This document shows, piece by piece, positions 5,023 to 37,735 of a DNA stretch of 42,063 nucleotides. Source of the DNA: a virus. Under the pieces are notes generated by a model. That model saw only the letters and a program-made list of their open reading frames with translations, was not told the origin of the DNA and did not search any database. The position numbers and the translations under genes are program-made. Location: IMG/VR virus record IMGVR_UViG_2645727538_000003, one strand, 5' to 3'. The stretch's first letter is position 1, and each line of letters opens with the position of its first letter.

Positions 5023-5040
5023 ATAAAACTTTAATTTTAT
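5023..5040. repeat. ATAAAA-N6-TTTTAT palindromic site
   Basis: ATAAAA ctttaa TTTTAT. Confidence 0.7.
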
Positions 5041-5060
5041 ACAGATGAGGATGATGAAGT

Positions 5061-5540
5061 ATGAAAATGACGAATGAAGACTTTAAATATTTAAACAAGC
5101 ATTTTGAACAACTTATTAAATTAAGAGAATCTGGCTATAAATGTGATTTTGAGATTAGAACTGTCTTAGATAAATTGCATGAAAAAATGGGTCTTGAGAA
5201 AAGAGCAGCTATCGGAACATGTTCAATGCCTGGAATTAGTATAAAAGAACCTTCCGTTGTTGTTTCACAAGGAGCAGTTAATTATTCACCGGGATTTGGG
5301 TCATCTAAAGGTGATACCCCCTTAAACAGTCAGAAAGATAAACCTAGGCTATTGATTCTTGGTGAACCTAGTTTGCTTTTTGAATTTTTCAAAGCATATA
5401 TTGTACCTGAATCAACTATAGTAAGATGCAATATAAGTCGAGATCAATCTCAGATAATTACAGAGGAAATTGAGATAACTTTTTTGAAGAAGACGTCCTC
5501 TACTAGGGGGATGCGATTTGATTATAAATTGTCTATGTAA
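5061..5540 (+). CDS. yonH: Hypothetical phage protein (yonH position)
   Basis: 159 aa ORF; size and synteny between yonJ and yonG. Confidence 0.55.
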   Translation: MKMTNEDFKYLNKHFEQLIKLRESGYKCDFEIRTVLDKLHEKMGLEKRAAIGTCSMPGISIKEPSVVVSQGAVNYSPGFGSSKGDTPLNSQKDKPRLLILGEPSLLFEFFKAYIVPESTIVRCNISRDQSQIITEEIEITFLKKTSSTRGMRFDYKLSM

Positions 5541-5627
5541 TTAAAAACACATTTTAAGAGCGCCCAGTGATGAATGAAGTCTCCACCACTTCTCTATTGC
5601 TGGGCGTTTTATAAAACGTGTTTTTGA
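5541..5627. repeat. Long imperfect inverted repeat (~30-bp stem)
   Basis: TTAAAAACACATTTTA-AGAGCGCCCAGTGAT pairs with ATTGCTGGGCGTTTT-A-TAAAACGTGTTTTTGA. Confidence 0.7.
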
Positions 5628-5650
5628 ACCAATTATTTGGAGGTGAACCA

Positions 5651-6580
5651 ATGCCAAGAAAAGCTAAAGAAAAGGAAAAATTGATCTGTGCTGCTTGTCA
5701 AAAAGAAAAGGACAAAGAGTCGGGGTTCTACAATTCACGAAGTAGCCTTTATGAGAAAACAGGCAAAGTCCCTATTTGCAAGACTTGCTTGAAGAAAAAT
5801 ATTGATTACAGCAATATTGAGTCAATATATACAGTCTTACAACAGATCGATGTTAAATTTGATCCTTTGTATTGGGAACAAGCTGAAAAGAGAAAAACAG
5901 ATACATTTAGCGCTTATATGACAATGGCTAATTCTTTGAAGCAATTTAACGGTACTGGTTACAAAGACAGTATATTTACAAAAGAAGATAAAACAAATGT
6001 AACAGCTAATGAAGAAGAGAGCCAAACATCTCAAGACATTGACTCAGACTATCTAGAGAAACTTAAAGAAAAATACGGATATGGCTACCCCGATGATGAC
6101 TACCTCCTTTTCGAAAAGAAATTCCTTCAACTAAAACCCTCTTTTCAGTTACTCACCACAATGCACGAAGAGTGCTTACGAGAATACTGCGTAAATAAGG
6201 TATATGAGACCCTTGCAAAAGCAAAAGGAGATTTTAAACAAGCTAAAGATTGGGCTGCAATGGCAAAAGATACAGCTGAAGCAGGTAAATTAAAACCTTC
6301 TCAAATGAGTAAAGCTGATTTATCGCAAGGTTTGGATGGATTTGGACAACTGGCGAGAATGGTTGAAGAGAAAGTTGACATTATCCCTATTCTACCCAAG
6401 TTTGTCTCTCAACCGAAAGATAAGCCAGATGTAGTATTATGGTGTTATTTAAATTATGTGCGGGACTTAAAAGGTCTTCCACCTGCTGATTATAAAGATA
6501 TCTACAACTTCTATGAAGAGCGCAGAGCAGATTATGAGAAACAAGAATTAGATAATGATCCTTCTATGCGGGAGTTATAA
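5651..6580 (+). CDS. yonG: Zn-finger phage protein; candidate terminase small subunit
   Basis: ATG 5651 behind GGAGGTG; CAAC...CKTC; immediately upstream of terL (function inferred from position). Confidence 0.65.
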   Translation: MPRKAKEKEKLICAACQKEKDKESGFYNSRSSLYEKTGKVPICKTCLKKNIDYSNIESIYTVLQQIDVKFDPLYWEQAEKRKTDTFSAYMTMANSLKQFNGTGYKDSIFTKEDKTNVTANEEESQTSQDIDSDYLEKLKEKYGYGYPDDDYLLFEKKFLQLKPSFQLLTTMHEECLREYCVNKVYETLAKAKGDFKQAKDWAAMAKDTAEAGKLKPSQMSKADLSQGLDGFGQLARMVEEKVDIIPILPKFVSQPKDKPDVVLWCYLNYVRDLKGLPPADYKDIYNFYEERRADYEKQELDNDPSMREL

Positions 6581-6582
6581 AT

Positions 6583-8358
6583 ATGGCTTCGAGAAAGAAC
6601 TTCCAAAGAGATAATTTTAAATACACCAAACAAAGTTCAAGATTGGACAGTGACCCTGAGTTTAACTCCCCTGTTCAAGCAAATCAAAATAAGGTTGATA
6701 CTTTTGAGCGAAATTTAGAAAAATGGATTGAATTTGTTCAATGGGCAAGATGGTTTCCTGATTTATGGTACGACTTGATTAAGCCAGAAAAAGGCGGTAT
6801 GAGACTAGATTTAGATCAAAGGGTTTTCCTAAGATGTATGAGTCGTTTTGTAAGTACATATGGAGTTTTCCCTCGTGGATTTGGGAAAACCATGCTTGAG
6901 TTAATGTCAATTTACCATACTGCTATTTGGTTTCCTGATATCACGATAGCCATGTCAGCACAAACAAGAGAAAATGCTGCTTCAATTAGTGAAGAGAAAC
7001 ACAATGAAATTATGAAGTGGTTTCCTTTAATGAAAAATGAATTAGCTGGTAAACCTTCTTTTACTAAAGACTCGGTCGAAGTAAAGTTCTCTTCCGGAGG
7101 AGTTTATTCTGTATTAGCAAACGCACAGTCTACAAAAGGACAACGGAGAAGAAGACTTAACGTTGAAGAATCAGCTCTTTTAAATAACGAGCTTTTTAAA
7201 GACGTACTTGAACCAGTCGTAAACGTGCCCAGAAGAACAATCGGCAAGCTTGCTACAGTAAACCCTTTTGAATTGAACGGGATGATTAATTACCTAACAA
7301 CGTCAGGCTATCGAGGATCAGATGAATTTAACAGGATTCTAAATATGCTTGATGAAATGGCTGAATTAAAAGGAAAAATTGTTCTAGGAGCAAGCTGGGA
7401 ATTACCTTGTCACTTTGGTAGAGGTGAAACACGGACTCAGATACTTGCAAAGAAAAATGATCCTACAACCTCATCAACTGCTTTCGCAATGAACTATGAG
7501 TCTAAATGGGTTGGAGCGAGTGATGGCGCACTTATCAACATTAGCAAGTTGATTAAAGCAAGGACAATTACAAACCCAGAACTGGCTTGTCCTAGAGATA
7601 AGAATAAGAATTTCTTATTAAATGAATATGTTATCGGGGTCGATGTTGCCCGCTCAAGTGAGAAGTCAAACAACAAAACAGCTATCATTGTTCTCAAGAT
7701 TGTTCGCAACTCCAATAATGCAATTAGGCAAGTCCAGGTTGTAAATATAATCGAACCACCAAACGGACTAAATTTTAAAGAACAATCAATCATGGTTAAA
7801 AGGGTTTTCAAAAATTATGGAGGTAATGAAGATCTATCTATATCAAGAGTTAGAGCTGTGATTGTAGACGGAAACGGAGTCGGAAGTGGACTGGTGGATA
7901 GACTTCTAGAAGATGTTACAGATCCAGAAACGAATGAAGAATTAGGATGCTGGGCAACAATCAATACTGATCAAAAACCAGATGTTCCAAACTCCCCTGC
8001 TATTGTTTATAACCTCAAATCTCAAGGGATTAACGACAAGATTATTACCACTTTCTTAGATTATGTTGAATCTGGAAAGTTGAAATTATTGAGACCATAT
8101 GAAGAAATAAAAAGCAAAAAAGTTATTAGTGACGATATAATGGTTGAGGCCACATGTATACAAACACAATTATTAATTGATGAAGTAGCCAACTTAAGGT
8201 TAAAGAAAACACAGAACTCAATTAGCGTCGAGCAAGTAGTTAAACGTATTGATAAAGATAGGTACAGTGCATTGAGTTATGCTCTTTACTACATAGCTTT
8301 GTTTTTAGAAAAGGAAGAATCCGATGATGAGTATTCATTTGGATTCTTTTTTAATTAG
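6583..8358 (+). CDS. yonF: Terminase large subunit
   Basis: Walker A PRGFGKT, Walker B LNVEE, nuclease GVDVAR and KDRYSA motifs. Confidence 0.93.
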   Translation: MASRKNFQRDNFKYTKQSSRLDSDPEFNSPVQANQNKVDTFERNLEKWIEFVQWARWFPDLWYDLIKPEKGGMRLDLDQRVFLRCMSRFVSTYGVFPRGFGKTMLELMSIYHTAIWFPDITIAMSAQTRENAASISEEKHNEIMKWFPLMKNELAGKPSFTKDSVEVKFSSGGVYSVLANAQSTKGQRRRRLNVEESALLNNELFKDVLEPVVNVPRRTIGKLATVNPFELNGMINYLTTSGYRGSDEFNRILNMLDEMAELKGKIVLGASWELPCHFGRGETRTQILAKKNDPTTSSTAFAMNYESKWVGASDGALINISKLIKARTITNPELACPRDKNKNFLLNEYVIGVDVARSSEKSNNKTAIIVLKIVRNSNNAIRQVQVVNIIEPPNGLNFKEQSIMVKRVFKNYGGNEDLSISRVRAVIVDGNGVGSGLVDRLLEDVTDPETNEELGCWATINTDQKPDVPNSPAIVYNLKSQGINDKIITTFLDYVESGKLKLLRPYEEIKSKKVISDDIMVEATCIQTQLLIDEVANLRLKKTQNSISVEQVVKRIDKDRYSALSYALYYIALFLEKEESDDEYSFGFFFN

Positions 8359-8376
8359 AAATTGAGGAGGTGAATA

Positions 8377-9918
8377 ATGACTACACCTGAACCACAGTCA
8401 TCATATGAATTTAATACAAATTTAGCACCGCTTGATTCATTGTTTTTCAATGATTTATTTAACGGCATTTCTTACGACAAAGTTAAATCATGGCTCAAAG
8501 ACCACAACATCTATAATAAACAGATCAGAGATGCCTCTAAACTACTTTATAACGCAAATGGTGTGTATAGAAATGTTATTGACTACATGGTAGCCCTCCC
8601 TACTTTAGACAGAGTTATTTTGGGATCAAGTAAAGTAGCTGATTTCAAATTGAACAAACAAAAGTTCAATCTGGCTTTAAGGAAAATCAGCGACAAAAGT
8701 GTTGTCAGGGATGCATTAGGAAAACTCAGCAAATATGGCACTGGTTGTTATTATTTTGATTCTGTAGTGAATGATTCCTTCCCGACTACTCTAAGTGACA
8801 ACGAGATCGGATCAATAACTGAATCAAATGCTATTGACGACTTTAATTGTTCTGTCCTCCCCCTTCCCCTCGATTATTGCAAAATTATCGGCAGGAAAAA
8901 TTCCTCTTATCAGTTAGCTTTTGATGTCTCCTATTTTGACAAGTTCACAAGTAACGGAAGATCGCTCAAGCTTAGACGATGGCCAGAAGAAATCAGGCAA
9001 GGCTACAGGACTTATAAGAAAGATCAAAATCGAAAATGGTTAGTTCTTGATAACAATAAAACTATCGCTGTTAAAGGAAGCAGTGACATTGAAGATCAAT
9101 GGGGACGCCCAATCGGTTTATCTGCATTTATTGATATGGTTTATGATGAATACTTTGTTGACACTAAACGGAACATTTTAGATGAGCTTAACAGTACTTT
9201 AATCTACCAGACCTTCCCTGAAGGGGATCAAAAAGGGAAATCGGCTTTATCTCAAAAGCAACAGGAGCAGCAACATGAGAATATCAAAAAAGCGTTAGTT
9301 GCTAAAGGAAGCGTTAAAGGTGTTAAGTTCTTCTCTTTGGCCTCTGGAACAAAATTAGACAAGTTAGAAACTAATGTAGATTTCTTGAAGGTTAAAGGTG
9401 AAGACGAGCTCATTAAAAGAATCACTACAAATTTAGGTTTTGCTGGTTCTGCTCTTAACGGGCAAGATGGTAACTACTCTTCTCAACAAACCAATATCGA
9501 GATGGTTTCTTCCCAAATATTCTCCTGGTTAGAACAAATTCAAAGTGAGTTTAACAAGGTGATAAACGCAAATATCATCAAAGATCCTCGCTCTTATATT
9601 GAGGTTTACTACCTACCTCTTACCCACGTTAACAGGAAAGAAAAAGTCCAAAACATGAAAGACCTTTACACAAGTGGTCGAGGCAGCCTTATTGCTTGGA
9701 TAGCCGCTACTGGATGGAATCCTGATGCTTACTTATCCCTAATGGAATATGAAAAAGACGAAGGTTTTGATGAAAAATTCCCTGTTCATGCGACCTCTTT
9801 CACAATGAGTAAGAATAACGATAAGTCAGCCGGCGCACCTGAGATCGATAATCCGAAAAATGAAAACACGATTAAATCGAAGACAAATAACAGTAACGGA
9901 ACGCCTTCTGGCTCTTGA
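8377..9918 (+). CDS. yonE: Portal protein
   Basis: 513 aa, follows terL; WGRP motif; synteny. Confidence 0.8.
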   Translation: MTTPEPQSSYEFNTNLAPLDSLFFNDLFNGISYDKVKSWLKDHNIYNKQIRDASKLLYNANGVYRNVIDYMVALPTLDRVILGSSKVADFKLNKQKFNLALRKISDKSVVRDALGKLSKYGTGCYYFDSVVNDSFPTTLSDNEIGSITESNAIDDFNCSVLPLPLDYCKIIGRKNSSYQLAFDVSYFDKFTSNGRSLKLRRWPEEIRQGYRTYKKDQNRKWLVLDNNKTIAVKGSSDIEDQWGRPIGLSAFIDMVYDEYFVDTKRNILDELNSTLIYQTFPEGDQKGKSALSQKQQEQQHENIKKALVAKGSVKGVKFFSLASGTKLDKLETNVDFLKVKGEDELIKRITTNLGFAGSALNGQDGNYSSQQTNIEMVSSQIFSWLEQIQSEFNKVINANIIKDPRSYIEVYYLPLTHVNRKEKVQNMKDLYTSGRGSLIAWIAATGWNPDAYLSLMEYEKDEGFDEKFPVHATSFTMSKNNDKSAGAPEIDNPKNENTIKSKTNNSNGTPSGS

Positions 9919-9935
9919 GAGGAGGTGATTAGTAT

Positions 9936-11090
9936 TTGAAAAGCACGATTTTAGAAATTAACAATCAGAAAAAAACCAGTGGTCAAACATACATCAAGTG
10001 GGTCGTTCTTGAAATTCATGAAAACAATACTCAGTTTAACAAGAATGGCATTACCTGGCTGGAGAAATACATAAACGCTAACCTTGAATCAATCAAGTTA
10101 ATGCCAATTTGCGCAGAGTTCTTGGATGATGAAAACAGTGAGCCATTCGGACACGGGTTAACAGAAGTCAAGGACGGTACCCCTCTCTTTGAAAACAGCG
10201 CAGTAGTTGGTACGACTACCAATGCTTACATTGACACTATAGATGTTAATGGTGAGCCAAAAAGAGTGTTAATAGCCGAAGGCTTCCTATACAACCAGCG
10301 CTACCCTAAATTTGTTCAATGGTTAAAATCAAAAATGTTTGATGGCGATTTCCCTGAAACCTCGGTTGAGATAGCAGCTGTAGAAGGTTCAGATGCAATT
10401 GAATATGAAGGTGGTTGGAAAGAGCAAGGGCGTATACCTATGAAGTTTGACTTTACAGGTGATGCAATTTTAGGTATCGATCCTGCAGATGATGCTGCCA
10501 TTTTACTTGAATTAAACAGTAACAAAAAGGAGGATAATTTAATGTCAAAATCTCAAGAAGAAGTAGTCCTTGAGTTAAACAACAAACTTGATAATAAGAA
10601 TAAAGAAATTGGAGAGTTAAATCAAAAAGTTGAGAAACTTACTGAGGACTTAAAGCAAAAAACTGAAGAACTGAATGCCGCTGTTAAAGCTGCAAAGGAT
10701 GAAAAAGCTAAGGCTGATGCAAAAGAAAAAGAAGCGCAAAAAGCTAAGGATGAAAAAGCCAAGGCAGATGAAGAGCTTAATTCCCTAAAGGAATTCAAAA
10801 ACAAGGCGGTAGCCGAAAAGATGCAAGGAGAGCTTAACCAAGCTTTAAAGGAATATTCTCCTGAAGAAAAGGATGTCGCAAAAGAGAAAATTGAAATGTT
10901 CTCTAAGTCTCCTTCTGTCGAGCTTAAAAACGAAATTATTTCTGAAATCAACTCAGCAATCGCTCGATCCTTCATCGCTGAACGCTCAAAGAAGCAAGCC
11001 TCTGAGACTAATAGCACAAATTTCGATATTTATTCAGAAGTTCGTGATTCTGGGCAACAAAGTTCAGTGACTATTGATGATCTTTATTAA
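9936..11090 (+). CDS. yonD: Prohead protease / scaffold fusion
   Basis: Globular N-domain (NKNG, GHG, ETSVEI, FTGDAILG) plus long coiled-coil C-terminus; between portal and capsid genes. Confidence 0.7.
   Translation: MKSTILEINNQKKTSGQTYIKWVVLEIHENNTQFNKNGITWLEKYINANLESIKLMPICAEFLDDENSEPFGHGLTEVKDGTPLFENSAVVGTTTNAYIDTIDVNGEPKRVLIAEGFLYNQRYPKFVQWLKSKMFDGDFPETSVEIAAVEGSDAIEYEGGWKEQGRIPMKFDFTGDAILGIDPADDAAILLELNSNKKEDNLMSKSQEEVVLELNNKLDNKNKEIGELNQKVEKLTEDLKQKTEELNAAVKAAKDEKAKADAKEKEAQKAKDEKAKADEELNSLKEFKNKAVAEKMQGELNQALKEYSPEEKDVAKEKIEMFSKSPSVELKNEIISEINSAIARSFIAERSKKQASETNSTNFDIYSEVRDSGQQSSVTIDDLY
10542..11090 (+). CDS. Nested in-frame scaffolding protein (182 aa) from an internal start
   Basis: AAGGAGG at 10527-10533, 8 nt before in-frame ATG 10542, at the domain boundary. 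Confidence 0.6.
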   Translation: MSKSQEEVVLELNNKLDNKNKEIGELNQKVEKLTEDLKQKTEELNAAVKAAKDEKAKADAKEKEAQKAKDEKAKADEELNSLKEFKNKAVAEKMQGELNQALKEYSPEEKDVAKEKIEMFSKSPSVELKNEIISEINSAIARSFIAERSKKQASETNSTNFDIYSEVRDSGQQSSVTIDDLY

Positions 11091-11091
11091 G

Positions 11092-11109
11092 ATAAAATAA
11101 CACTTTTAT
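11092..11109. repeat. ATAAAA-N6-TTTTAT palindromic site
   Basis: ATAAAA taacac TTTTAT. Confidence 0.7.
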
Positions 11110-11130
11110 AAAATTTAGGAGGAATACTCA

Positions 11131-11595
11131 ATGTTCAAATTCGGAACAATTGGTGCTTATAAACAAGTACGAAATAATCCACGTTGCAAGGCTAGTGTCG
11201 ATTTAGTCCCTGGTCTAGTCGTAATCCCTAACGATTCTTCTGGTAACGCATTCCCTCCAGGTGCATCTTCAACTGCAAAAGGTGATGTGTATGTTGTTGG
11301 AAACATTATTGATAAACCTGAAATTCGCAATAAAGAAGACTTCAAAGTTCTAAAAGGTGAATATGTCCTTGCTTTTAATTTAGCTGACTTAAAAGGACTG
11401 CCAATTGAACTTAGCTCAGACGTAGTAGTTGATTATGATGCGCTTGTTAAAGATGACGTATTGGTTCCTGCTGCAGACAAATCAGGTAAATGGGTTAAAG
11501 CTGGAGATGACGTTGCAGAGTTTAAAGTATCTCTAAAAGTCTTAGAGAAAAATACATTTGGCGGAAAAGGTTTGTACCTAACAGTACAGGCTTAA
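11131..11595 (+). CDS. yonC: Capsid decoration / head structural protein
   Basis: 154 aa, beta-rich; strong RBS; directly before the capsid gene. Confidence 0.6.
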   Translation: MFKFGTIGAYKQVRNNPRCKASVDLVPGLVVIPNDSSGNAFPPGASSTAKGDVYVVGNIIDKPEIRNKEDFKVLKGEYVLAFNLADLKGLPIELSSDVVVDYDALVKDDVLVPAADKSGKWVKAGDDVAEFKVSLKVLEKNTFGGKGLYLTVQA

Positions 11596-11618
11596 TTATA
11601 TTCTGGAGGTAATTATTA

Positions 11619-12725
11619 ATGTTTACAGTTGAATTAAACAATGTTCAAAAAGACTCAAACCATTATGCAAATGCTAAATTGAATGCTAAGTCCCCTATTG
11701 TAGAAATCTTTTCTGCAGCTGCAACAGGTCAAGATCTTTCCAAGTTTGGAGCAAAAGCCAATGCTGCTATGACCCATGTGAAGGAACTAGCTTCCAAAGC
11801 TCTTATGGGCAACCCTGTAGCTAAAGCCGAGATCAACACAATTGTGCGTTATGCCATTGAGCCTAAGCTTATTTCAGCAATTAAGCTATTTGATTTTATG
11901 GGCACATTTAGAACTATCGGCTATGATCAGCAACCAATGATGACATCATACGCGCATGAATCCATCCGAAGCCAATTCCAAGCTTCCCGTGGTGACGTAC
12001 CGTTCGCTACTACAACTTGGAGCGAATACCCGATTGGAACTCAAACCATTTCTTCTGGCTATGCTGTTAACTATCGTGAGATTCAAAGTGGAAACCTCGA
12101 TAAAGTAGCAGAAGGCATGGAGCAAGTTCAAACAGATATGATGAACAAAGCGATGTACTATGTAGTAAATGAAATGTTCAATGCAATTAAAAATGCAACA
12201 GGTGTTAAATACTTTGCTGAAACTGAAGGTATCACCAAATCATCTGTAGACGATATTATCACAAAGATTCGCCGATTTGGACAACCTTCTATTGTTGGTG
12301 ACTTTTCTGTTGTTTCTCAGTTAAATGACTTTGCAGGGTTCCAGGCTGTAACCGGAGATGCTTCAAGCACTAAACTCCCTCAGTCTGTTATGGATGAAAT
12401 CCGAAGAACAGGATTACTTAACACTTATAAAGGTTCTTCTGTTGTAGAATTACCTAATGCTTATAATCTAACTGAATTAAATAAAGCCGGCGATAACTTC
12501 AAAACATATCTTCCTGAAGGACTTCTCTTCTTCATTCCTCAAGGTAAAAAGTCTCCTCTTCAAGTTTTCCAAAAAGGCGGACTCACATCGATGAATGGTA
12601 ACGACATTATCACTGGAACTGAAATCACTCGTTTTGATATGGAAATTGGAGCTGGTGTAGCCAAAGGACAAGAACATCAAATTGGTCTCATCAGAGACAC
12701 AAAATATGAATTACCACAAATTTAA
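11619..12725 (+). CDS. yonB: Major capsid protein
   Basis: 368 aa; position; strong RBS; followed by a terminator. Confidence 0.8.
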   Translation: MFTVELNNVQKDSNHYANAKLNAKSPIVEIFSAAATGQDLSKFGAKANAAMTHVKELASKALMGNPVAKAEINTIVRYAIEPKLISAIKLFDFMGTFRTIGYDQQPMMTSYAHESIRSQFQASRGDVPFATTTWSEYPIGTQTISSGYAVNYREIQSGNLDKVAEGMEQVQTDMMNKAMYYVVNEMFNAIKNATGVKYFAETEGITKSSVDDIITKIRRFGQPSIVGDFSVVSQLNDFAGFQAVTGDASSTKLPQSVMDEIRRTGLLNTYKGSSVVELPNAYNLTELNKAGDNFKTYLPEGLLFFIPQGKKSPLQVFQKGGLTSMNGNDIITGTEITRFDMEIGAGVAKGQEHQIGLIRDTKYELPQI

Positions 12726-12739
12726 ACAATTTAAAATTT

Positions 12740-12768
12740 AGGAGGGCTGTATCCCTCCTTTTATTTTT
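12740..12768 (+). terminator. Intrinsic terminator after the capsid gene
   Basis: AGGAGGG-ctgtat-CCCTCCT + TTTATTTTT. Confidence 0.75.
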
Positions 12769-12779
12769 GGAGGGATTAC

Positions 12780-13253: not shown

Positions 13254-13265
13254 GGGGGTTAAATC

Positions 13266-13652: not shown

Positions 13653-13661
13653 GGTGATTAG

Positions 13662-15537: not shown

Positions 15538-15577
15538 TTCACAGTCTCTTTTTCATTTTAAATTAGGAGGAAAACAC

Positions 15578-16381: not shown

Positions 16382-16399
16382 CGTTAGGAGCTTGATATC

Positions 16400-16798: not shown

Positions 16799-16829
16799 TT
16801 TGAGGGGATTCTTCCCCTCTCCTTTTTAA

Positions 16830-16847
16830 ATAAAAGTCAGTTTTTAA
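16830..16847. repeat. ATAAAA-N6-TTTTA(A) palindromic site
   Basis: ATAAAA gtcagt TTTTAA. Confidence 0.6.
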
Positions 16848-16869
16848 ACAGACTTAGGAGGTGGAGTTG

Positions 16870-17226
16870 TTGACAGAAACCGATGAAAATATTTTAAAAA
16901 CCATTCCAGATAAAGCAACCTTTACATTCCACGAAGCAACAACTGCCCCGTCTGAAGGTGAAGAATTTGTAGTATCACATTATCGGGATATTACTGTTAA
17001 GATCTCTGGTTCCTCAACTTCAAGAGAAATAAAATTCTTTGCCGTAGATGAAAATGGTGAAAAGACAGAAATTGCTGGAACAAACAAAACTGATTTTCAA
17101 TTAGGTACGGGCACATTGAATACAAATGAAAACTGGGATTTCGATATTGCGGGGCTTTTCAAATTCATGGTTGAGGTCATTTCCGTAAATGGAGATGTTA
17201 CGGTTAAAGGAATTGCGGTGAGTTAA
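16870..17226 (+). CDS. yomS: YomS (XepA-related beta-sandwich protein)
   Basis: TTG 16870 gives 118 aa MTETDENILK...; RBS GGAGGTG; synteny. Confidence 0.75.
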   Translation: MTETDENILKTIPDKATFTFHEATTAPSEGEEFVVSHYRDITVKISGSSTSREIKFFAVDENGEKTEIAGTNKTDFQLGTGTLNTNENWDFDIAGLFKFMVEVISVNGDVTVKGIAVS

Positions 17227-18560
17227 TGAGTAGCAGTAAATTTGTAGGTCAGCTCAAACAAAACAATATACAAATCAATAACCTTAAAGATCAATTTTTC
17301 AGAACTGAATCTCATATGTCTGATCATGAAAAACGTTTATCTGACAAAGTCGATGAGTTCATGGAAAAGCAAAATTCGGAATTAAAGTCGCATACTCAGA
17401 ATACAGAAAACCCGCACAAAGTGACTAAAGAGCAAGTCGGATTATCAAATGTACTTAATGAAGAGCAAGCCACAAAAGTTGCTTTTGATGACCATCTTAA
17501 TGATAAGAAAAATCCTCATGCAGTTACTAAAAGCCAAGTTGGTTTGTCTAAGGTTGATAATGTTCAACAAGCAGCAAAAATTGATTTTGACGCTCACGAT
17601 GCAGACCTCGATCGACATATCACAAAGGATGAGCGCAGTTATTGGAACAGCTCTGATGAAAGGTCAAAGTCTTTCTTAGCTGAACATACTAACGATCAAT
17701 CAAACCCACACAAGGTAACTGCTGAACAGGTTGGACTTGGGAATGTAGACAATGTAAAACAAGCTACTAAAAGTGACTTTGATAATCATCTGAATGACAC
17801 TAATGTCCATATCAACAAATCTGATCGAGATAGATGGGACGCTGCTCAACTTTTCAAACTCACTGCCGATGATGGGAAAGTATTCTACAAAGGTAGCTCC
17901 GAAAAAACGGAGTACAATGATTTGATTAACACTGGATTTTATTTAATCGCAAACCAGGGGCTTCACTCCCCTGCCAACTTATCCAATGTCTATTTAGCTG
18001 TCATGAACTATGGAACTACAATTGCACAATTTGCATTAGAAGCGTATTACGGAACACATACTTATTTCCGTTTTAGAAAAAGTGATTCAACTTGGACTTC
18101 ATGGCAAACACACGAAACGACTGACGGAGCACAAGCTAGAGCTACTACCGCACTCAACTCAGCGAAAGCCTACACCGATGCCCACGAAGCAAAAACTGAT
18201 ATTCACGTTACTTTAGATGACAAAGCTAGATGGAGTGGTACATCAGGTTCTTGGAACCCAGTCACACTTATTAATGGAGCTACACAATACTCCACTTACC
18301 CTTTCAAATTCTCAAGTGTAAATAACGTGCTATGGCTAAGAGGATCTTTCGGAACATTGCCGGCCATTGGAACTGCAGTTGCTAAATTCTCAACCAAGCC
18401 AACACAGCTGGTGGATTTTGTAGTACCCACAATTGGATCATATGGAACAGCGAGATTTGCCTTCACAACAGATGGAGATTTACGTTTTGACGGATTGTAC
18501 GCTAATGACATTAACAGTGTTTCCAGAGTTTCATTTAATATAGGAATTCCTTTATGGTAG
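17226..18560 (+). CDS. yomR: Tail fibre protein with NPHxVTxxQVGLxNV repeats and knob domain
   Basis: Three NPH(K/A)VT..QVGL repeats; TGFY...WTSW knob-like segment. Confidence 0.75.
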   Translation: MSSSKFVGQLKQNNIQINNLKDQFFRTESHMSDHEKRLSDKVDEFMEKQNSELKSHTQNTENPHKVTKEQVGLSNVLNEEQATKVAFDDHLNDKKNPHAVTKSQVGLSKVDNVQQAAKIDFDAHDADLDRHITKDERSYWNSSDERSKSFLAEHTNDQSNPHKVTAEQVGLGNVDNVKQATKSDFDNHLNDTNVHINKSDRDRWDAAQLFKLTADDGKVFYKGSSEKTEYNDLINTGFYLIANQGLHSPANLSNVYLAVMNYGTTIAQFALEAYYGTHTYFRFRKSDSTWTSWQTHETTDGAQARATTALNSAKAYTDAHEAKTDIHVTLDDKARWSGTSGSWNPVTLINGATQYSTYPFKFSSVNNVLWLRGSFGTLPAIGTAVAKFSTKPTQLVDFVVPTIGSYGTARFAFTTDGDLRFDGLYANDINSVSRVSFNIGIPLW

Positions 18561-18574
18561 TAGGTGAAAATATT

Positions 18575-18892
18575 ATGCATGTTCTTTATTACGATGAGAA
18601 CTTTATGTACGCTGGAGAAGACTTCATTGAAGGCGATGTTCTCCCTCCAAATAGTACAACTGCTGTCCCAGACCCCACAATAATCTTGCCCAAATATGAT
18701 CCCAAGAAAAATAAATGGATTGAATCAGCAACTGAAGAATACAAGGATAGCGTTAAACCAGATACTCCTGAGCCTAGCGATATTGACATTTTAGGACAAA
18801 CACTGTCCCAACTCCGTATAAGTTTGTTACAAGTCAACAAAACAATAAACACAATGTTAAAAGATATTGCCGATCTAAAGGGAGGTTCATAA
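18575..18892 (+). CDS. yomQ: Tail fibre chaperone-like protein
   Basis: YDENF.Y.G...P.NSTT..P....PKYD....WIE pattern; ATG behind AGGTGA. Confidence 0.65.
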   Translation: MHVLYYDENFMYAGEDFIEGDVLPPNSTTAVPDPTIILPKYDPKKNKWIESATEEYKDSVKPDTPEPSDIDILGQTLSQLRISLLQVNKTINTMLKDIADLKGGS

Positions 18893-18893
18893 A

Positions 18894-19094
18894 ATAACTA
18901 CAGCTACATATAATTATTGGGTTAAGGCCCTGAGTCGGAAATGGGCAACCGTCGATCAAGTCAAAGAAGCTTACCAGGAATTCAACGATGTGACAAAAGA
19001 AGAGCTACAATTAGGCGTAAAGAATGGCTTAGTCACATTAGAAGAGTACAAAGAAATCACTGGCGAAGACTACGAAGAAGCAGAGACAGAATAA
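18894..19094 (+). CDS. yomP: XkdX-family protein with ATA start (non-canonical start or start-loss pseudogene); missed by ORF track
   Basis: Translates (I/M)TTATYNYWVKALSRKW...GLVTLEEYKEITGEDYEEAETE; GGAGG 8 nt before ATA; in-frame stop at 18876-18878. Confidence 0.75.
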   Translation: MTTATYNYWVKALSRKWATVDQVKEAYQEFNDVTKEELQLGVKNGLVTLEEYKEITGEDYEEAETE

Positions 19095-19108
19095 AATACA
19101 AGTTTTAT
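19091..19108. repeat. ATAAAA-N6-TTTTAT palindromic site
   Basis: ATAAAA tacaag TTTTAT, overlapping the yomP stop codon. Confidence 0.7.
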
Positions 19109-19110
19109 TT

Positions 19111-19142
19111 AGACACCTCTCCCCTTTTGAGGTGTCTTTTTT
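19111..19142 (+). terminator. Intrinsic terminator after the tail fibre block
   Basis: AGACACCTC...GAGGTGTCT + TTTTT. Confidence 0.75.
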
Positions 19143-19662: not shown

Positions 19663-20078
19663 TGGCCAAGAACATAAAAGAAATAGCAGCACTAATTGAA
19701 TTTGCCGCAAAGCAAGCCGTTCAAAAACAATCCAACACAAAAAATACGATGATTAAAACGGGTCAAGAGCATGTGCAATCTGATGTATATGACACATACG
19801 ATCCTCTTGTATATGAACGTACTTCTCTTTTGAAGGACTCTTTTGTCATTCAAAACGAATCTAACGGAATTTCATTAGACAATACCCGTGAAGACAACGG
19901 CAAGGATGTTGCTACGGTTGTTGAGACTGGTCAAGGATACACATATCCAGATAAATACGGTTATGGTTACGGAAAACCTCGCCCATTTATGAAGAATACT
20001 GCTGACTCCTTAAAAGATGGACGATTAGTTGCTACTATGAAAAAAGATTTAAATGCAAGTGGTATTAAAACAGAATAA
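19662..20078 (+). CDS. yomN: HK97-gp10-like tail completion protein
   Basis: YERT..LKDS...VE.G...PRPFM motif. Confidence 0.7.
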   Translation: MAKNIKEIAALIEFAAKQAVQKQSNTKNTMIKTGQEHVQSDVYDTYDPLVYERTSLLKDSFVIQNESNGISLDNTREDNGKDVATVVETGQGYTYPDKYGYGYGKPRPFMKNTADSLKDGRLVATMKKDLNASGIKTE

Positions 20079-20091: not shown

Positions 20092-21093
20092 ATGGCCAGA
20101 GAAATAAAACAAAACATGATGCGCTCTAGAGCCGAAAAGTTGCCCGAAGTCACGGATGAAATGTGGGGTCAGGTTGATGACGAGCATAGAAGCTTAACAC
20201 AAGAATTTCTTGATGCCCACTCATTCCGAGATAAAACCAGGAAGCAATACAACTCCTCTCTTCGTCAGTTCTTCTGGTGGGTGCATAATTCCTTGAATGG
20301 GAAGAAGCTTTACAAAATATCCAAAAGGGATTTCATCAGATATCAAAGCTTCCTGAAAAATAGAGGGATGTCTTCAAGTGGAATCGCTTTAAAAAAGGCT
20401 GGAGTATCTTCTTTAAATAACTATATCGAGAATGTTGTTGCTGAAGATGACGATAATTATAAGTCATTCAGGAACTTCACAAGAGGTCTTCCTGCCATCC
20501 CTAAAACAACTACGTATGAAAAAGTAAAAGTTACTTACGATGAATACAGAACAATGATGAAAGTGCTTGAAGAAGATAAGAACTATTTGGGGATGGCTTG
20601 GTTAGCTACTGCTTTTAATGTAGGTGCCAGAAGAGCTGAAATTATTCAGTTTAAAACCGAAATCCTGAATTATGAGATACCTGAAGGTCAATCTTATGTC
20701 ATGGCTCACAAAGTTCTTGGAAAAGGAAAAGGCGAAGGGAAACCCCTCGACTACATGATTAACACAGAAGCTCTGGAATATTTGAAGCTTTGGCATGAAC
20801 AACGGGGATATGACCATGAGTATCTATTTACTACACAGTACGGTGGCCAACCAAGACAAATGTCAGAGGGTTGGGCTGACTATTTTTGTTCTGATGTTCT
20901 TTCTGATATCCTCGGCCGCCGCATTAACCCTCACCTCTTTAAAGCCTCCTGTATTACTTACCTTCTTGAAGTCAAGAAAATTAAGATTGAGCTCGTGAGT
21001 AAATATGTTGCACAGCATAATGATGTGTCTACAACAATTAAGCATTACGACCTTCGTGATTTTAAAGAAGAAAAGAATCAAATCTTCTCGTAA
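20092..21093 (+). CDS. yomM: Tyrosine recombinase/integrase-like protein
   Basis: SAM-like N-domain; GARRAE, GKG, HLFKAS (HxxK), QH...TTIKHY; 333 aa from ATG 20092. Confidence 0.85.
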   Translation: MAREIKQNMMRSRAEKLPEVTDEMWGQVDDEHRSLTQEFLDAHSFRDKTRKQYNSSLRQFFWWVHNSLNGKKLYKISKRDFIRYQSFLKNRGMSSSGIALKKAGVSSLNNYIENVVAEDDDNYKSFRNFTRGLPAIPKTTTYEKVKVTYDEYRTMMKVLEEDKNYLGMAWLATAFNVGARRAEIIQFKTEILNYEIPEGQSYVMAHKVLGKGKGEGKPLDYMINTEALEYLKLWHEQRGYDHEYLFTTQYGGQPRQMSEGWADYFCSDVLSDILGRRINPHLFKASCITYLLEVKKIKIELVSKYVAQHNDVSTTIKHYDLRDFKEEKNQIFS

Positions 21094-21353: not shown

Positions 21354-21365
21354 GCAGCACTCTTT

Positions 21366-21383
21366 ATGAAATCCCTCTTTTAT
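21366..21383. repeat. ATGAAA-N6-TTTTAT palindromic site variant
   Basis: ATGAAA tccctc TTTTAT. Confidence 0.55.
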
Positions 21384-21390
21384 TCAGAAT

Positions 21391-29646: not shown

Positions 29647-29690
29647 GCCAGTGTATATGCTGGTTCTTCTTATTTTTGAGGTGATAAAAA

Positions 29691-33100
<3,410 letters not shown>

Positions 33101-33208
33101 ACAGGCGCTATTGGTTACGTCTTTTTGTTTTAAAGCCCACTTTATTTATATATATTAGATTCCTTTTCAATCATTAAGAAATCGTCGATAACCTCAGTCT
33201 TTACTCCC

Positions 33209-33802
33209 CTATTTTCCCACTAGAACATCAGGCAAATGAAATTCTTTTGATTCAGTCTTATGCTTTGTCCAAACACTGCTAATATTATGTTCTTTACACA
33301 TTTGGTAGGCTTCTTCACCTAAGCACTCTTTAGTTTTTTGCAGGTTTCTCACTTTTTCACCTTTGATATTGTTATCCTTCCATCCTTTGAAATAAATCTT
33401 CTCTCCATCTTCATAGGATGGACGATTCAATTCAGCTATTTCATGAATTGCAACTCTTGAATTAACATTAACCCTTTCAGGAATCTGGATATTTAATTCA
33501 TCGAAAAAGTACTTTGGTTTAAAAGGATTGTTCGGATCGTACTGTAATCCTAAAATCTCAACTAAAGCCTTGTACTGGTCTCTTTCAATGGAAGTTTTTA
33601 TATCATAATCAGTACTTACGGACACGGAAAGGCAAAACAATTCAGAACGTATACCGATTAAAAGTTTATATGGTTCAATATCAGCTAAGAATATCGCTTT
33701 AAAAAGTTTTCCGTTTTTTCTAAAATCAAACTTCACACGTTCCAAATTGTTTTCTTTCATATTCTGATGAAGAATTTCTAATCCATCTAGTTTCATGGCC
33801 AT
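33209..33802 (-). CDS. Accessory protein, DUF6037-like
   Basis: Only credible minus-strand gene; RBS AAAGGAG directly upstream on the minus strand (start may be the second Met); MKLDGL..L...MK.....R.KF.F and C...NISS.W pattern recalled as DUF6037. Confidence 0.7.
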   Translation of the reverse strand: MAMKLDGLEILHQNMKENNLERVKFDFRKNGKLFKAIFLADIEPYKLLIGIRSELFCLSVSVSTDYDIKTSIERDQYKALVEILGLQYDPNNPFKPKYFFDELNIQIPERVNVNSRVAIHEIAELNRPSYEDGEKIYFKGWKDNNIKGEKVRNLQKTKECLGEEAYQMCKEHNISSVWTKHKTESKEFHLPDVLVGK

Positions 33803-33875
33803 CTCCTTTTTTGATGTTTATCATTCAATTTTAATGTTCTATGGACTATTTTTCCACTAAACAGATGACTTTTAA

Positions 33876-33893
33876 ATAAAATTCTTCTTTTAT
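33876..33893. repeat. ATAAAA-N6-TTTTAT palindromic site
   Basis: ATAAAA ttcttc TTTTAT. Confidence 0.7.
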
Positions 33894-34043
33894 GCAAAGA
33901 CTTGACCGTTTTCATACGATTACGCCCCTTTTTCACTTAAAAATACCTTGTAAATTACAAATGATTTTACCACTTGATTCCATAATGGAAATTGTGTCAT
34001 GATGGATTTTAAGTGTTTAACAGAAAGAGTGAGGGGATCAGCA

Positions 34044-34211
34044 ATGAGTGACAAAAAATATGAATCTATACACTGGTTTGCGTCAGTACTAGCGTTTACA
34101 TTAATAATTTTGAATAGTTTTTTTATAAAAATTGAGGGTGTAACTGTTGGTATTGCGATTGCATATATAGTGATCATGGGAATTGTTAGGAGGACATGGA
34201 AAAAAGCTTAG
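34044..34211 (+). CDS. 55-aa 2-TM small membrane protein
   Basis: GAGGGG RBS before ATG 34044; two hydrophobic helices and a basic tail RRTWKKA. Confidence 0.6.
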   Translation: MSDKKYESIHWFASVLAFTLIILNSFFIKIEGVTVGIAIAYIVIMGIVRRTWKKA

Positions 34212-34305
34212 AGAGAAAAGACTGCAGAGTTTAGAAGAGAGAGGTCGCGCACTTAGAAGAATTGCTCAAATCAATTACACAATAAGAAAGGACGGTGAAT
34301 TTAGT

Positions 34306-35121
34306 TTGGATTTTCCTCAGCTCTATAACGACCCTACCCTTTCTCAAAAAAGGAAGGGTTCAATCGATGACCCTTATTTAAGCTATAGTGAAACTTTAAC
34401 TGTTTACAATGGTCGAGTCTTACTTTCAGAAGTACCTAACCGTGAGTACAGGGTCGAGGTTAGCGGTGACAGTAAAGAATGGCGAGAAATCGAAGATGGT
34501 GAATTAGAAGACAACTACTTTAAGGTTGATTACCTTATGGGAGTTGTCTTTTTCAATGGTTCAAATGAAGGTAAATCACTTACTTTTACATATCAAGGAG
34601 AAGGCGCATCCTTCTTCCCTGCCTCAAGAATATGGATTAAACGGCAAGGAAATATGGTCATTGAAACACTTCAAGGCTTAATTGATGATGCTGAAGATGC
34701 CATTATTCGTATCAACGAACGTATTGCTGAATGTGAACGTGTCACCAAGCGATGTGTTGAAATAACAAATTGGTGCAGACAAGCGACCTCAGATTATGAG
34801 TATGTAGTTGAGAACACTAGAAAGATTTACTTGCCGTTCGTGTACACCTATCAGGATTTATTGAACACTTATCCTTCCCCTCAAATTGGTTGGACTGTCA
34901 CTGTAAAAGAAACAGGCATTGAATATCGATGGGATGGTTTCGACTGGATAAATATTAGCGTGTCAGATAAGTATGATGGTTTCAACATTGTTTCCAGCTA
35001 TGTTGAGCCTTACAACATCAGATCAGTATGGTTGAGAACGAACAATGCTCCCAAAAAGATGAGGATAAAACCTTCTGTAGAACCCCCTGACGGAAGTATG
35101 GTTTGGATTAGAAAAGGATAA
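34306..35121 (+). CDS. yomF: Baseplate / tailspike-attachment protein
   Basis: TTG 34306 behind AAGGACGGTG gives 271 aa; synteny. Confidence 0.65.
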   Translation: MDFPQLYNDPTLSQKRKGSIDDPYLSYSETLTVYNGRVLLSEVPNREYRVEVSGDSKEWREIEDGELEDNYFKVDYLMGVVFFNGSNEGKSLTFTYQGEGASFFPASRIWIKRQGNMVIETLQGLIDDAEDAIIRINERIAECERVTKRCVEITNWCRQATSDYEYVVENTRKIYLPFVYTYQDLLNTYPSPQIGWTVTVKETGIEYRWDGFDWINISVSDKYDGFNIVSSYVEPYNIRSVWLRTNNAPKKMRIKPSVEPPDGSMVWIRKG

Positions 35122-35134
35122 GGAGGAGTATATA

Positions 35135-37684
35135 TTGAGCGACAATTTAATTCCCGTAAACACAATGGGTTATAAGGACGAAGAAACAGAGCAATGGATA
35201 CCCATTGATGCCATAGGGTTAAAATCAAATAATATTAGATATACTGCAGACGATATTCAAGAGGCTTTTGATAAAGCTTCTAAGGATATTAAAAACGTAA
35301 TAAGCACAGTTGATTCTGGTTTAACAGAAATCACAAACACTATTGGAGACATTTCAAAAATCCCTGCATCTGGTGCAACAATTGTTGATAAAGTCTTAAA
35401 TGAGTTTATCAGACGAAGTGTCAATGTTCAGGATTTTGGGGCTAAGGGTGATGGTGTTACTGATGACACTGAAGCTTTCAAAGCTGCCTTTGCAAGTGGG
35501 AAACGAGAGGTTTTTGTACCTGCAGGTATTTATATGGTTCAAGGATTACATATCCCTTCTTATGTCAGACTTTACGGTGTTGGATCAGGGTCTATTATCA
35601 AGCTTCATCCAACTGCTGCCGGAACATCTTGTGTGTTAACCAATAGCGACTACACAAACGGAAACGAATATATCTTAATTGAAGACTTAGACCTCGATTG
35701 GAATTTAGACAAAAAGGACAACACCATTACAAATGGAACAAATGCAAACTGTGTGGGTATTGTTAACTCTAAATTTGTTCGGGTTAGAAACGTCAATGCT
35801 CGTAATCCAGGTGTACACGGTTTTGATGTAAGCTCCCCTGTTTGGAACTCTTCTTCTGATGGAGCAGATCATTATCAGCCAAATGGTAGCAAATATGTTT
35901 GGATTGAAAATTGTACTGCAACTAATTATGGTGATGATGGCTTCACAACTCACTATTCTGATTACATCTTCTTCACTAACTGTTACGCCTATGACGCTAA
36001 TGGATCCGCCCACAGTAAAGGAGCTTCAAATTCAAATGGTTTTGAAATTGATGATGGCTCTAAAAATGTGTGGCTGGTGAACTGTTACAGTCGAAAAAAC
36101 TGTAGAGGTTTTGAAGTCAAAGCTCACAGCAGAGCACCGGCAGCAAGAAACGTAAACCTAATTAACTGCTATTCTGAAAATGATATCCGTGCATTTGACT
36201 TTAGACACATCGGCTTTCATCTAGCTTCTGAAAAACCCTCCCCAAATGCATTCGACATTAATGTCGTTAACTGCACTGCACAACATCCTATTTTCAGTGA
36301 TCTTTATCAAGGTTTAAATCCTCGCGCACTAGTCATTTCCGCTTATAGAAATGTCAACGTTTCGAACTTCAACGCAATTGGTGATCCAACCTATGATTAT
36401 AAAAACACTGCAATCATCACCACCCAATATAAAAGCAAAAATATCAACCTAAGCAACATCACTGTTTCGGGATTTACAACAGCGAGTAACGATATCTATG
36501 TAATCGGTGGAGCTCAAAAATCAGATAATGTAAACATCTCGAATGTAACCATTAACCAATCTGCTTTAGTTGGTATTGCTGTGGGAAGTAAAGTTGGCTC
36601 AGTCAATATCAATAACGTTAACATGACGGGATCAAACAAAGCAGGTTCGATAGGTGTTTACTGCACGAATTCACAAGCTAATATTAGCGCTGCGATGTGT
36701 GAACAATACGCTACTCCCAGTAAAATTGCCGGAAAAACCTACACGTTTATCCCGAATAATTTCAAGGGCGGTCTACGTGGGGCTACGACTTCTGGCTATG
36801 CTAAAACAAATACTAGTGCAGTATTAGCTTCATCGGGTGAACCTCAAGCACTTGGAGATGCCACTTTAGTTGGAGCTACTACCGGAGGATGCGTTGCAAA
36901 GGGAACAAGAACCAACGTTTTCGGCTCATCAGGCGGAAGCTCTGTAGATGGATCTCGTAGCGGTGTTTACAACTCCAATGATTCTCATATCGAGGGGCAA
37001 AATGTATCACGTGAAATCCACGCTTCTGGAGGTGTAAAACTTGGTGAAAATGATCGCTATATGGTGGTTGGCGGATATGGCGCTACTCCGTCCAGAGCAA
37101 ATATTAAATGGATGCTAAACTCCATGAATGGGGATATAACATCGGCAGGAAAGATGAATGGCGGAGCCACCTTTAGTGATTACGCTGAGTATTTTGAAAG
37201 TCTTGACGGAAAAGCAATTCCGACAGGGACAATTGTCACTCTTGAAGGAGCTAAAATTCGCCCGGCGAGAAAAGGTGAAGATGTACACGGAGTAATCTCT
37301 GAAACTGCAGGAACTATTCTAGGAGGAGCTGATATTCACTGGCAAGGTAGATATTTAAAGAATGAGTTTGGTGGATACATATATGAAGATGTGGTCAACC
37401 CAGAAACCGGTGATGTTAAGAAGCTGCCTAAAGTAAACCCTGAGTGGATTGAAAAAATAGATTACGTCCCTCGTGAAGAACGTCCTGAATGGAATATAGT
37501 AGGATTGCTTGGACAGGTTTATGTGAAAGTGGACAGTACTGTTTCTGTGGGAGATCGAATTGAAGGTAATTATGGAATCGGCACAAAAACAGAAGACAGG
37601 TTTTACTCTTGGAAGGCTATGGAGATTGTAACTCCATATTCAGACAAGCTCGGTTACGGCATTGCCATCTGCTTAATTAAGTAA
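35135..37684 (+). CDS. yomE: Tailspike: pectate-lyase-like beta-helix + peptidase G2 autocleaving chaperone (phi29 gp12 pre-neck appendage-like)
   Basis: VNVQDFGAKGDGVTDDTEAF; DYAEYFE cleavage motif; PREERPEW..VGLLGQ. Confidence 0.88.
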   Translation: MSDNLIPVNTMGYKDEETEQWIPIDAIGLKSNNIRYTADDIQEAFDKASKDIKNVISTVDSGLTEITNTIGDISKIPASGATIVDKVLNEFIRRSVNVQDFGAKGDGVTDDTEAFKAAFASGKREVFVPAGIYMVQGLHIPSYVRLYGVGSGSIIKLHPTAAGTSCVLTNSDYTNGNEYILIEDLDLDWNLDKKDNTITNGTNANCVGIVNSKFVRVRNVNARNPGVHGFDVSSPVWNSSSDGADHYQPNGSKYVWIENCTATNYGDDGFTTHYSDYIFFTNCYAYDANGSAHSKGASNSNGFEIDDGSKNVWLVNCYSRKNCRGFEVKAHSRAPAARNVNLINCYSENDIRAFDFRHIGFHLASEKPSPNAFDINVVNCTAQHPIFSDLYQGLNPRALVISAYRNVNVSNFNAIGDPTYDYKNTAIITTQYKSKNINLSNITVSGFTTASNDIYVIGGAQKSDNVNISNVTINQSALVGIAVGSKVGSVNINNVNMTGSNKAGSIGVYCTNSQANISAAMCEQYATPSKIAGKTYTFIPNNFKGGLRGATTSGYAKTNTSAVLASSGEPQALGDATLVGATTGGCVAKGTRTNVFGSSGGSSVDGSRSGVYNSNDSHIEGQNVSREIHASGGVKLGENDRYMVVGGYGATPSRANIKWMLNSMNGDITSAGKMNGGATFSDYAEYFESLDGKAIPTGTIVTLEGAKIRPARKGEDVHGVISETAGTILGGADIHWQGRYLKNEFGGYIYEDVVNPETGDVKKLPKVNPEWIEKIDYVPREERPEWNIVGLLGQVYVKVDSTVSVGDRIEGNYGIGTKTEDRFYSWKAMEIVTPYSDKLGYGIAICLIK

Positions 37685-37717
37685 CCCTTAAAATTAAAGG
37701 AGGTGGTTATGTTCTAG

Positions 37718-37735
37718 TTAAAATATAAATTTTAT
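37718..37735. repeat. TTAAAA-N6-TTTTAT palindromic site variant
   Basis: TTAAAA tataaa TTTTAT, directly after an RBS-ATG-TTC-TAG mini-ORF. Confidence 0.55.

Follow-up and report, generated by a model that had tools for sequence, protein, structure and literature searches.

How phage genomes come to be mosaics with joints at gene borders is a long-standing question, and the answer is usually sought in illegitimate or short-homology recombination. The window, by which we mean the whole analysed stretch of 42,063 nucleotides from IMG/VR virus record IMGVR_UViG_2645727538_000003, poses this question in a specific form, as it contains dispersed ATAAAA-N6-TTTTAT palindromes at the borders of gene modules. 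It forms the final third of a provirus record of 125,329 bp (G000) that has ~74-78% identity to phage SPbeta over part of the late region. The original prediction took the palindromes for core sites at which the tyrosine recombinase YomM, or another phage recombinase, inserts, excises or swaps modules in an integron-like manner. We find that the palindromes belong to a real, highly structured system, and that related phages exchange their flanking DNA at the six-base centres of the sites. Recombinase-type sites and gene-content breakpoints confined to their centres are thus upheld, whereas an integron- or Tn916-like mode is not, at least as the main one.

A dyad site with a unique six-base centre

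The window holds eight copies of ATAAAA-N6-TTTTAT, five perfect and three with one mismatch. Shuffled versions of the window average 0.05 perfect and 1.11 one-mismatch copies, and 0/100 shuffles attain 5 or 8, which bears out the claim that the copies exceed chance. The coordinates and spacers of the seven copies originally listed are all correct, as are the four called perfect, but a fifth perfect copy at 30692 (spacer acagaa) had been overlooked. This copy lies inside the 877-aa yomG-like tail gene, so the accompanying statement that every copy lies between genes or overlaps a stop codon is true of the seven and not of the full eight. Across the whole of G000, a spacer of 6 gives 9 perfect copies and 28 with at most one mismatch, against 0-2 and 1-10, respectively, for 13 other spacer lengths (0-13); the corresponding SPbeta counts are 13 and 38.

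We compared G000 with nine close relatives (94-96% identical over 40-67% of G000), SPbeta and phi3Ts, using open reading frames (ORFs) from our own ORF caller; the names yomS, yomR, yomP, yomG, yonD and yonG were assigned by position against the SPbeta annotation, Pfam matches excepted. A set of 174 distinct co-directional sites, taken from 11 genomes, defines the full site as a 28-bp dyad with an 11-6-11 layout, approximately TYTRRATAAAA-N6-TTTTATYYARA. With a position weight matrix (PWM) score of at least 16, the 11 genomes contain 328 matches with the 6-bp spacer, against 1-13 for spacers of 3-5 and 7-9 bp, so that the site has the inverted arms and the constant 6-bp centre of an Xer/Cre-type core site. 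The arms are symmetric. Pairing between variable positions equals the shuffled expectation at all 14 positions of arms and centre (n=297), and this lack of covariation indicates a double-stranded protein site and rules out an RNA or single-strand hairpin.

Most sites lie outside genes: only 35/314 near-perfect copies lie inside called ORFs, although ORFs make up ~80% of the DNA, and the remainder are mostly on or after a stop codon, 15-37 bp ahead of the next start. Of the 41 sites of G000, the early region (72 kb) has 33 and the late region (53 kb) 8; 33/41 are more than 30 kb away from yomM. One gap of 16.3 kb has only a degenerate candidate site at its middle.

The centre gives each site an address of its own. 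No centre is repeated within a genome, in either orientation, in the 12 close records, in 12 more distant ones with up to 65 sites each, or in three further records. The joint probability of this uniqueness is ~5e-4 for eight records (centre columns resampled; records not fully independent), and no gene is flanked by two copies of one centre in any genome examined. Pairs of the 12 close genomes have 8-31 exact centres in common, and among 15,599 comparisons of their order there is not one inversion. In a second clade (G017, G020, G021, G023), a separate set of centres is likewise collinear; its members have 36-41 of 58-65 centres in common with one another and only 3 with G000. Flanks stay at their own address, apart from a few that shift to a neighbouring one.

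The site is not confined to SPbeta-like phages. The shorter core TAAAA-N6-TTTTA is present in 27/27 virus records selected by YomM (5-61 copies versus 0-5 for the reversed control), and the same core recurs in distant Bacillota siphoviruses, including phages of Bacillus, Staphylococcus, Enterococcus, Leuconostoc and Lactococcus, at 7-65 sites per genome. Ten more phages have copy/control counts of 31/2, 4/1, 12/0, 28/1, 7/2, 10/2, 9/3, 35/5, 17/6 and 4/0; perfect copies number 26 versus 0.27 expected in phiLM33_01 and 6 versus 0.15 in 9183. A de novo dyad search returned the core at the top in E3, the Staphylococcus SPbeta-like phage, PBC2 and phiLM33_01 and in second place in 9183; in phiL47, Ldl1 and SEP9, with no more than 4-12 looser copies each, the core was not returned. 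Lactococcal 949-group phages phiL47 and LW81 carry a GTAAAA-N6-TTTTAC variant every 16-19 kb over part of the genome, leaving a large uncovered arc. A host-wide regulator motif was also considered and rejected, with no enrichment outside prophages in three host genomes (G064, G065, G066): G064 has 29 matches in its first 4.0 Mb against 31 control matches genome-wide, and in a 4.5-Mb host genome 18/31 strict matches fall within 109 kb, the motif being confined to prophages.

Exchange at the centres and the candidate recombinase

If the sites were crossover points, relatives that agree on one side of a site only should also agree in its centre. Among 417 sites, the centre is identical in 119/139 pairs that have only the left flank in common and in 88/103 pairs that have only the right flank in common (207/242 combined), against a background of 684/34,716 for all junction pairs. 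In left-flank-only pairs, identity stays at 0.94-0.99 through the centre and falls to the background level at the variable positions of the right arm; right-flank-only pairs give the mirror-image step. Because identity crosses the centre from either side and then drops at the variable positions of the far arm, the crossover appears to be confined to these six bases. The second, unrelated clade replicates the pattern, with identical centres in 31/38 and 44/49 pairs and the same identity step. Where both flanks differ at the same address, the median length of unbroken identity is 17 bp (n=553). In this comparison of sequences, the sites behave as expected of Xer/Cre-type recombination, in which the crossover lies within the overlap and partner overlaps are identical.

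The best candidate for the enzyme is YomM, encoded within the window. Tyrosine recombinases use the catalytic set R-K-H-R-H/W-Y. The YomM residues R180, K211, H281, K284, H309 and Y319, assigned by conservation and not by superposition, are invariant in 37 close homologs, and R180, H281, H309 and Y319 are invariant also in 13 distant ones; 733 homologs were found at E<=1e-5. The structure model of YomM (mean predicted local distance difference test, pLDDT, 84.5) is predicted to combine the core-binding and catalytic folds of a tyrosine recombinase, and Foldseek aligns it with XerA, Cre and Tn1549 Int (E 5e-9 to 1e-6, TM 0.4-0.5), XerA and Cre being its nearest folds and solved relatives. The gene also tends to accompany the sites. 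In a sample picked by the motif (26 long contigs from 80 listed of 123 motif-scan loci, many of them incomplete), a match to the YomM-family profile occurs in 14/14 contigs with at least 10 sites versus 2/12 with fewer (P=1e-5); with near full-length matches only, the count is 11/14 for the site-rich contigs (P=0.005). YomM is thus supported as the best candidate enzyme, in line with the original proposal, by its conserved catalytic tyrosine and partner residues and by its co-occurrence with the sites. In the literature searched, which included neither the SPbeta genome paper of 1999 nor the bulk of the subscription journals, there is no description of the motif or of YomM function, and no paper has "yomM" with "SPbeta".

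Taken together, we consider it likely that the sites serve site-specific, address-matched recombination, whichever enzyme performs it, and probable that YomM acts on pairs of sites with matching centres alone, switching shared to unrelated DNA within the centre. Sites with unlike centres on one genome would ignore each other, producing neither deletion nor inversion. Since centres are unique, the natural partner of a site would be its own copy on another genome molecule, be this a sister copy, the genome of a phage infecting the same cell or a prophage already resident there. A first crossover would merge the two genomes into one molecule, from which they would separate again, with the interval between swapped, through another crossover, either at a different address or by ordinary homologous recombination in a gene that both carry. 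We infer catalysis, the identity of the enzyme and this fuse-and-resolve route.

Several findings weigh against this reading, both on where exchange occurs and on which enzyme performs it. Of 370 distinct sharp breakpoints, only 56 fall at sites; as sites make up 1.1% of the DNA and 4.6% of the DNA not deep in ORFs, this share also counts in favour of the reading. The other 314 lie away from sites; 142 breakpoints are inside ORFs and 173 elsewhere. The expectation that breakpoints in aligned relatives would fall inside the 6-bp spacer thus holds at the sites and fails for most sharp breakpoints. Intervals with a site break in 202/375 cases versus 383/1,693 without one, in genomes that are not independent, and 3/16 ends of near-identical blocks between SPbeta and phi3Ts lie strictly in a site, with 3 more within 14 bp. 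About six clear junctions among 297 junction types join unlike centres. They are mostly deletions of intervening addresses that keep one of the two centres, as from gaccga to tacaga (G007), tcatcc to ggaata (G003) and aattga to tatcgt (G005). In phi3Ts, two different addresses (107374-107401 and 120507-120534) have an identical 28-bp run that ends exactly at a centre edge, likely a trace of exchange between unlike sites. Laboratory hybrids do not provide direct proof of site exchange, being uninformative or negative: in four SPbeta x phi3T hybrids no crossover resolves to a site, most crossovers lie within identical blocks of 1.4-18 kb, and one lies in a 39-bp stretch without a site. Several short flips in the hybrid maps are labelling artefacts, one of them from a deletion in the parental phi3T record. 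The paper on these hybrids places 15/16 crossovers at homology. A single non-homologous junction "following yosA", reported in 10.1101/2020.05.06.055103, lies near SPbeta site 116409; no phage record with that junction turned up.

As for the enzyme, the second catalytic arginine, that of the HxxR motif, is retained in 10/13 distant YomM homologs and is a lysine in YomM of the SPbeta clade. YopP (SroD) of G000, in turn, has the canonical R-K-HxxR-H-Y set intact and is the sole PF00589 match there. YopP-like genes moreover accompany YomM in SPbeta-like, Tsamsa-like and 949-like phages, and the same address-matched recombination could be the work of YopP or of a host Xer-type recombinase. We regard this assignment as improbable. 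The YopP proteins of SPbeta and phi3T are only 33% identical, though the two phages have motif and addresses in common. In 9183, SEP9, Ldl1, phiLM33_01 and SpP, all of which carry sites, the only PF00589 match is a YomM-like gene and no second one was found; because the PF00589 search missed YomM itself in G000, such counts of a single recombinase are a lower bound. A host Xer enzyme is disfavoured by a core that spans phages of five host genera and by host chromosomes that are not enriched for it. The co-occurrence of sites and YomM is itself confounded by shared ancestry, and G047 and G053 carry YomM-like genes with few sites, a de novo search returning no significant variant dyad that co-varies with their divergent YomM. 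In the Alicyclobacillus phage KKP_3916, which carries sites, the close YomM profile has no match; a recombinase split in two frames in the record (OQ846916.1 26864-27779), through sequencing error or as a pseudogene, stands at the position of YomM ahead of a long tail gene, and 12 sites persist.

An unlikely account of the dyads is that they are docking sites of a dimeric regulatory or architectural protein, and that swaps take place there just because the dyad supplies the short homology common to the alleles, by annealing-protein or RecA-type recombination. SPbeta does encode a Sak4-like annealing protein by annotation, laboratory hybrids do recombine in short homology without a site, and most sites occupy the gap from a stop codon to the following ribosome-binding site. 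An operator, however, gives no reason for centres that are unique within a genome, and it leaves unexplained why crossovers halt at centre edges, why variable arm positions move with their own flank and why deletions between unlike addresses end exactly at a centre. The identity in common is only 17 bp at the median, and the known repressor box is a different motif. Very unlikely, in our judgement, is the integron- or Tn916-like insertion and excision of single cassettes regardless of centre. The junctions between unlike centres, one of which makes a new centre (acaaga, between actatc and tcacga), and the many intervals containing one small gene are what such a process would leave, but the identical centre is kept in 207/242 exchanges, no duplicated centre flanks a gene and the order of addresses never changes. 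Nor do the arms covary as in an attC-like hairpin, and no array is anchored at the recombinase gene.

If address-matched recombination is the mechanism, its selected function may be exchange itself, or exchange may be a by-product of sister-copy maintenance, such as circularising terminally redundant DNA or making and resolving multimers. Sites inside genes and the even spacing in some small phages, at one site per 10-15 kb, hint at genome maintenance. In-gene sites of conserved genes are kept in an x-K-x-x-F-Y frame, and consecutive sites are 10-13 kb apart in 9183 and, across most of the genome, 13-18 kb apart in KKP_3916; together, these features suggest a second need, genome-wide coverage. 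Even spacing is significant in 9183 (circular P=0.0017 for 7 sites, P=0.02 for a stricter 6) and SpP (P=0.003), as is the largest gap in KKP_3916 (P=0.01). Evenness was not supported in SEP9, Ldl1, phiL47, the Staphylococcus SPbeta-like phage, PBC2, G053, VPE25, CF1 or LW81; significant in 3/12 genomes, it is rejected as a universal rule, which counts against circularisation. SPbeta-like phages are reported in 10.1101/2021.11.22.469490 to package permuted DNA by a pac/headful mechanism, and VPE25, in PMC4999554, to be permuted and lytic, with an unexplained recombinase and no lysogeny found; both would fit a Cre-like circularisation. Against this, Tsamsa, a relative of the site-bearing PBC2, is reported to have a fixed 284-bp end repeat. 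Overall, these data suggest mixed support for a maintenance role. A wider scenario, possible but doubtful, is that a broadly distributed class of temperate and lytic Bacillota siphoviruses has one late-operon YomM-family recombinase acting on a genome-wide ladder of uniquely barcoded sites. Its first job would be to join sister copies at a shared address, such as to close the chromosome, permuted and with redundant ends, once it has entered the cell; the large SPbeta-like phages would then have multiplied the sites of their accessory regions into natural cassette exchange, a programmed phage sex.

Should the proposal be true, phages would possess a built-in, address-matched system of gene exchange, and a role would be found for the "integrase" that is so far unexplained in lytic phages, VPE25 among them. 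As the model phage SPbeta offers a defined site, a matching-centre partner rule and a candidate enzyme, B. subtilis 168 allows a direct test of a site-specific route. Genome engineering could also benefit from a recombinase that comes with dozens of naturally orthogonal addresses.

Sites and neighbouring genes of the window

Table 1. Positions of the candidate recombinase gene and of the dyad sites in the window.
Feature	Coordinates	Strand	Remarks
Site, address ctttaa	5018..5045		Left arm contains stop codon of 31-aa ORF; active exchange point
Weak, probably decayed copy, centre cgtgtt	5606..5633		Before yonG-like gene; sub-threshold PWM score in G000
Site, address taacac	11087..11114		Directly after stop of yonD-like gene
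Site, address gtcagt (SPbeta: gacagt)	16825..16852		Before yomS-like gene; deleted in G006
Site, address tacaag	19086..19113		On stop codon closing tail-fibre block; right end of fibre-module swap
yomM, 333-aa tyrosine recombinase, candidate enzyme	20092..21093	+	Upstream ATG at 20053 gives 346 aa
Site, address tccctc	21361..21388		After yomM and 84-aa ORF
Site, address acagaa/tcagaa	30687..30714		Inside yomG-like tail gene, codons L-I-K-T-E-F-Y
Site, address ttcttc	33871..33898		Beside inserted DUF6037 gene (33209-33802, minus strand)
Site, address tataaa (SPbeta: tataga)	37713..37740		Between receptor-binding/depolymerase gene and endolysin gene

The individual sites differ in how much exchange they have seen. 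The 11 copies of site 5018 have 4 alleles of the left flank and 6 of the right, so that both flanks swap, and in public contigs of runs X1, X2 and X5 a different left flank is followed by homology that restarts at 5023/5024; the 31-aa ORF that had been noted ahead of it is real. The weak copy at 5606 is a better match in G001 and G006. At site 11087, no flank exchange was seen, with one junction type in 8 copies. Site 21361 has the same centre in SPbeta and phi3Ts, with another left flank. The in-gene site 30687 is kept in 8 close relatives and has one mismatch in phi3Ts at 70% identity; it was not found in G001.

Sites 19086, 33871 and 37713 each bound a swap on one side; on the other side, the swap ends within shared sequence. 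Over 17226-19113, 5/9 relatives have another 3' part of the tail-fibre gene and two other genes (92 and 282 aa); the change begins inside the fibre gene and in four of them (G003, G004, G005, G008) they rejoin exactly at site 19086. The tail-fibre block is therefore not swapped as a single cassette. The DUF6037 gene runs against the tail operon and was seen between these addresses only in G000 and G006; it is absent from G002 and G007, where homology restarts at a degenerate copy of the site. Site 37713 does correspond by orthology to the site that SPbeta carries between yomD and yomE; in G004 and G009, the swapped C-terminal part of the 849-aa gene stops ~20 bp before it. Small duplications or deletions in arms or centre have decayed the orthologs of 19086 (G007, G009), 21361 (G002) and 16825 (G006), which makes single late-region sites dispensable.

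Among the neighbouring genes, an HU-like DNA-bending protein (PF00216; 630-905) is a candidate accessory factor for recombination. Between the HU gene and yonK (1785-3237), two genes without a Pfam match, encoding a 330-aa protein and a 145-aa membrane protein, occupy a slot that differs among relatives and possibly holds accessory or defence genes. The prophage end (40787-42063) encodes a Rap-family tetratricopeptide repeat (TPR) protein followed by a short Phr-like peptide gene.

Relation to known systems

The repeated element already described in these phages is SPBRE, a 15-mer at ~10 promoters that is the operator of MrpR/SroF according to PMC10516654 and 10.1101/2025.11.27.690993. Like the dyad sites, it is intergenic and repeated, and it is bound by a recombinase-fold protein; it differs in being a non-dyad element of another sequence. 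We recovered SPBRE de novo at 10/10 ChAP-seq genes, and 12/13 of its matches are free of overlap with a site, the remaining one overlapping the outer arm of a site by 2 bp. As 4/10 of the ChAP-seq genes have no site within 400 bp and the 15-mer differs, the possibility that the dyad is the SPBRE/MrpR operator is ruled out.

Closer parallels lie among tyrosine recombinases. The pdif/dif sites have asymmetric XerC and XerD arms and are used by the host Xer enzymes. They resemble the phage sites in that many dif-like sites on one replicon border accessory modules. In contrast, the phage sites are symmetric dyads (set against dif arms by description only), prophage-specific and not enriched in host chromosomes, with 7-65 per genome and probably one phage-encoded enzyme; their centres are all unique and in fixed order, and some lie inside conserved genes. 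Whereas pdif modules are recognised by the same module in several unrelated contexts, phage flanks stay at their address. The fuse-and-resolve route that we propose for phage swaps has been described for pdif sites, where cointegrate formation and resolution yield hybrid Acinetobacter plasmids (PMC9455709).

The partner rule itself recalls engineering practice. In recombinase-mediated cassette exchange (RMCE) with heterospecific lox or FRT sites, the arms are symmetric, overlap identity picks the partner and two crossovers exchange the DNA between the sites. Sites of unlike overlap do not react with each other when on one molecule, as would hold for the proposed phage system, which differs in being natural, with a 6-bp overlap between 11-bp arms, dozens of addresses and a candidate enzyme. 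In phage P1, Cre/loxP circularises headful-packaged DNA and resolves dimers. P1 has one site, in contrast to the many barcoded sites of these phages; Cre is among the nearest solved relatives of YomM, and the pac/headful packaging reported for SPbeta-like phages in 10.1101/2021.11.22.469490 is like that of P1.

The attC single-strand hairpins of integrons have no counterpart here, nor does an array beside the integrase with reordering of cassettes, the phage sites being genome-wide with 0/15,599 order inversions. Integrons and Tn916 are alike to the phage system in their tyrosine recombinase and gene-border sites. Partners that lack a shared overlap, as in Tn916-type elements, are confined to about six exceptions; unlike 6-bp centres join rarely, and matching centres are the rule. 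Judged by these comparisons, the phage system is probably a variant of multi-site module exchange by a tyrosine recombinase, and not an integron.

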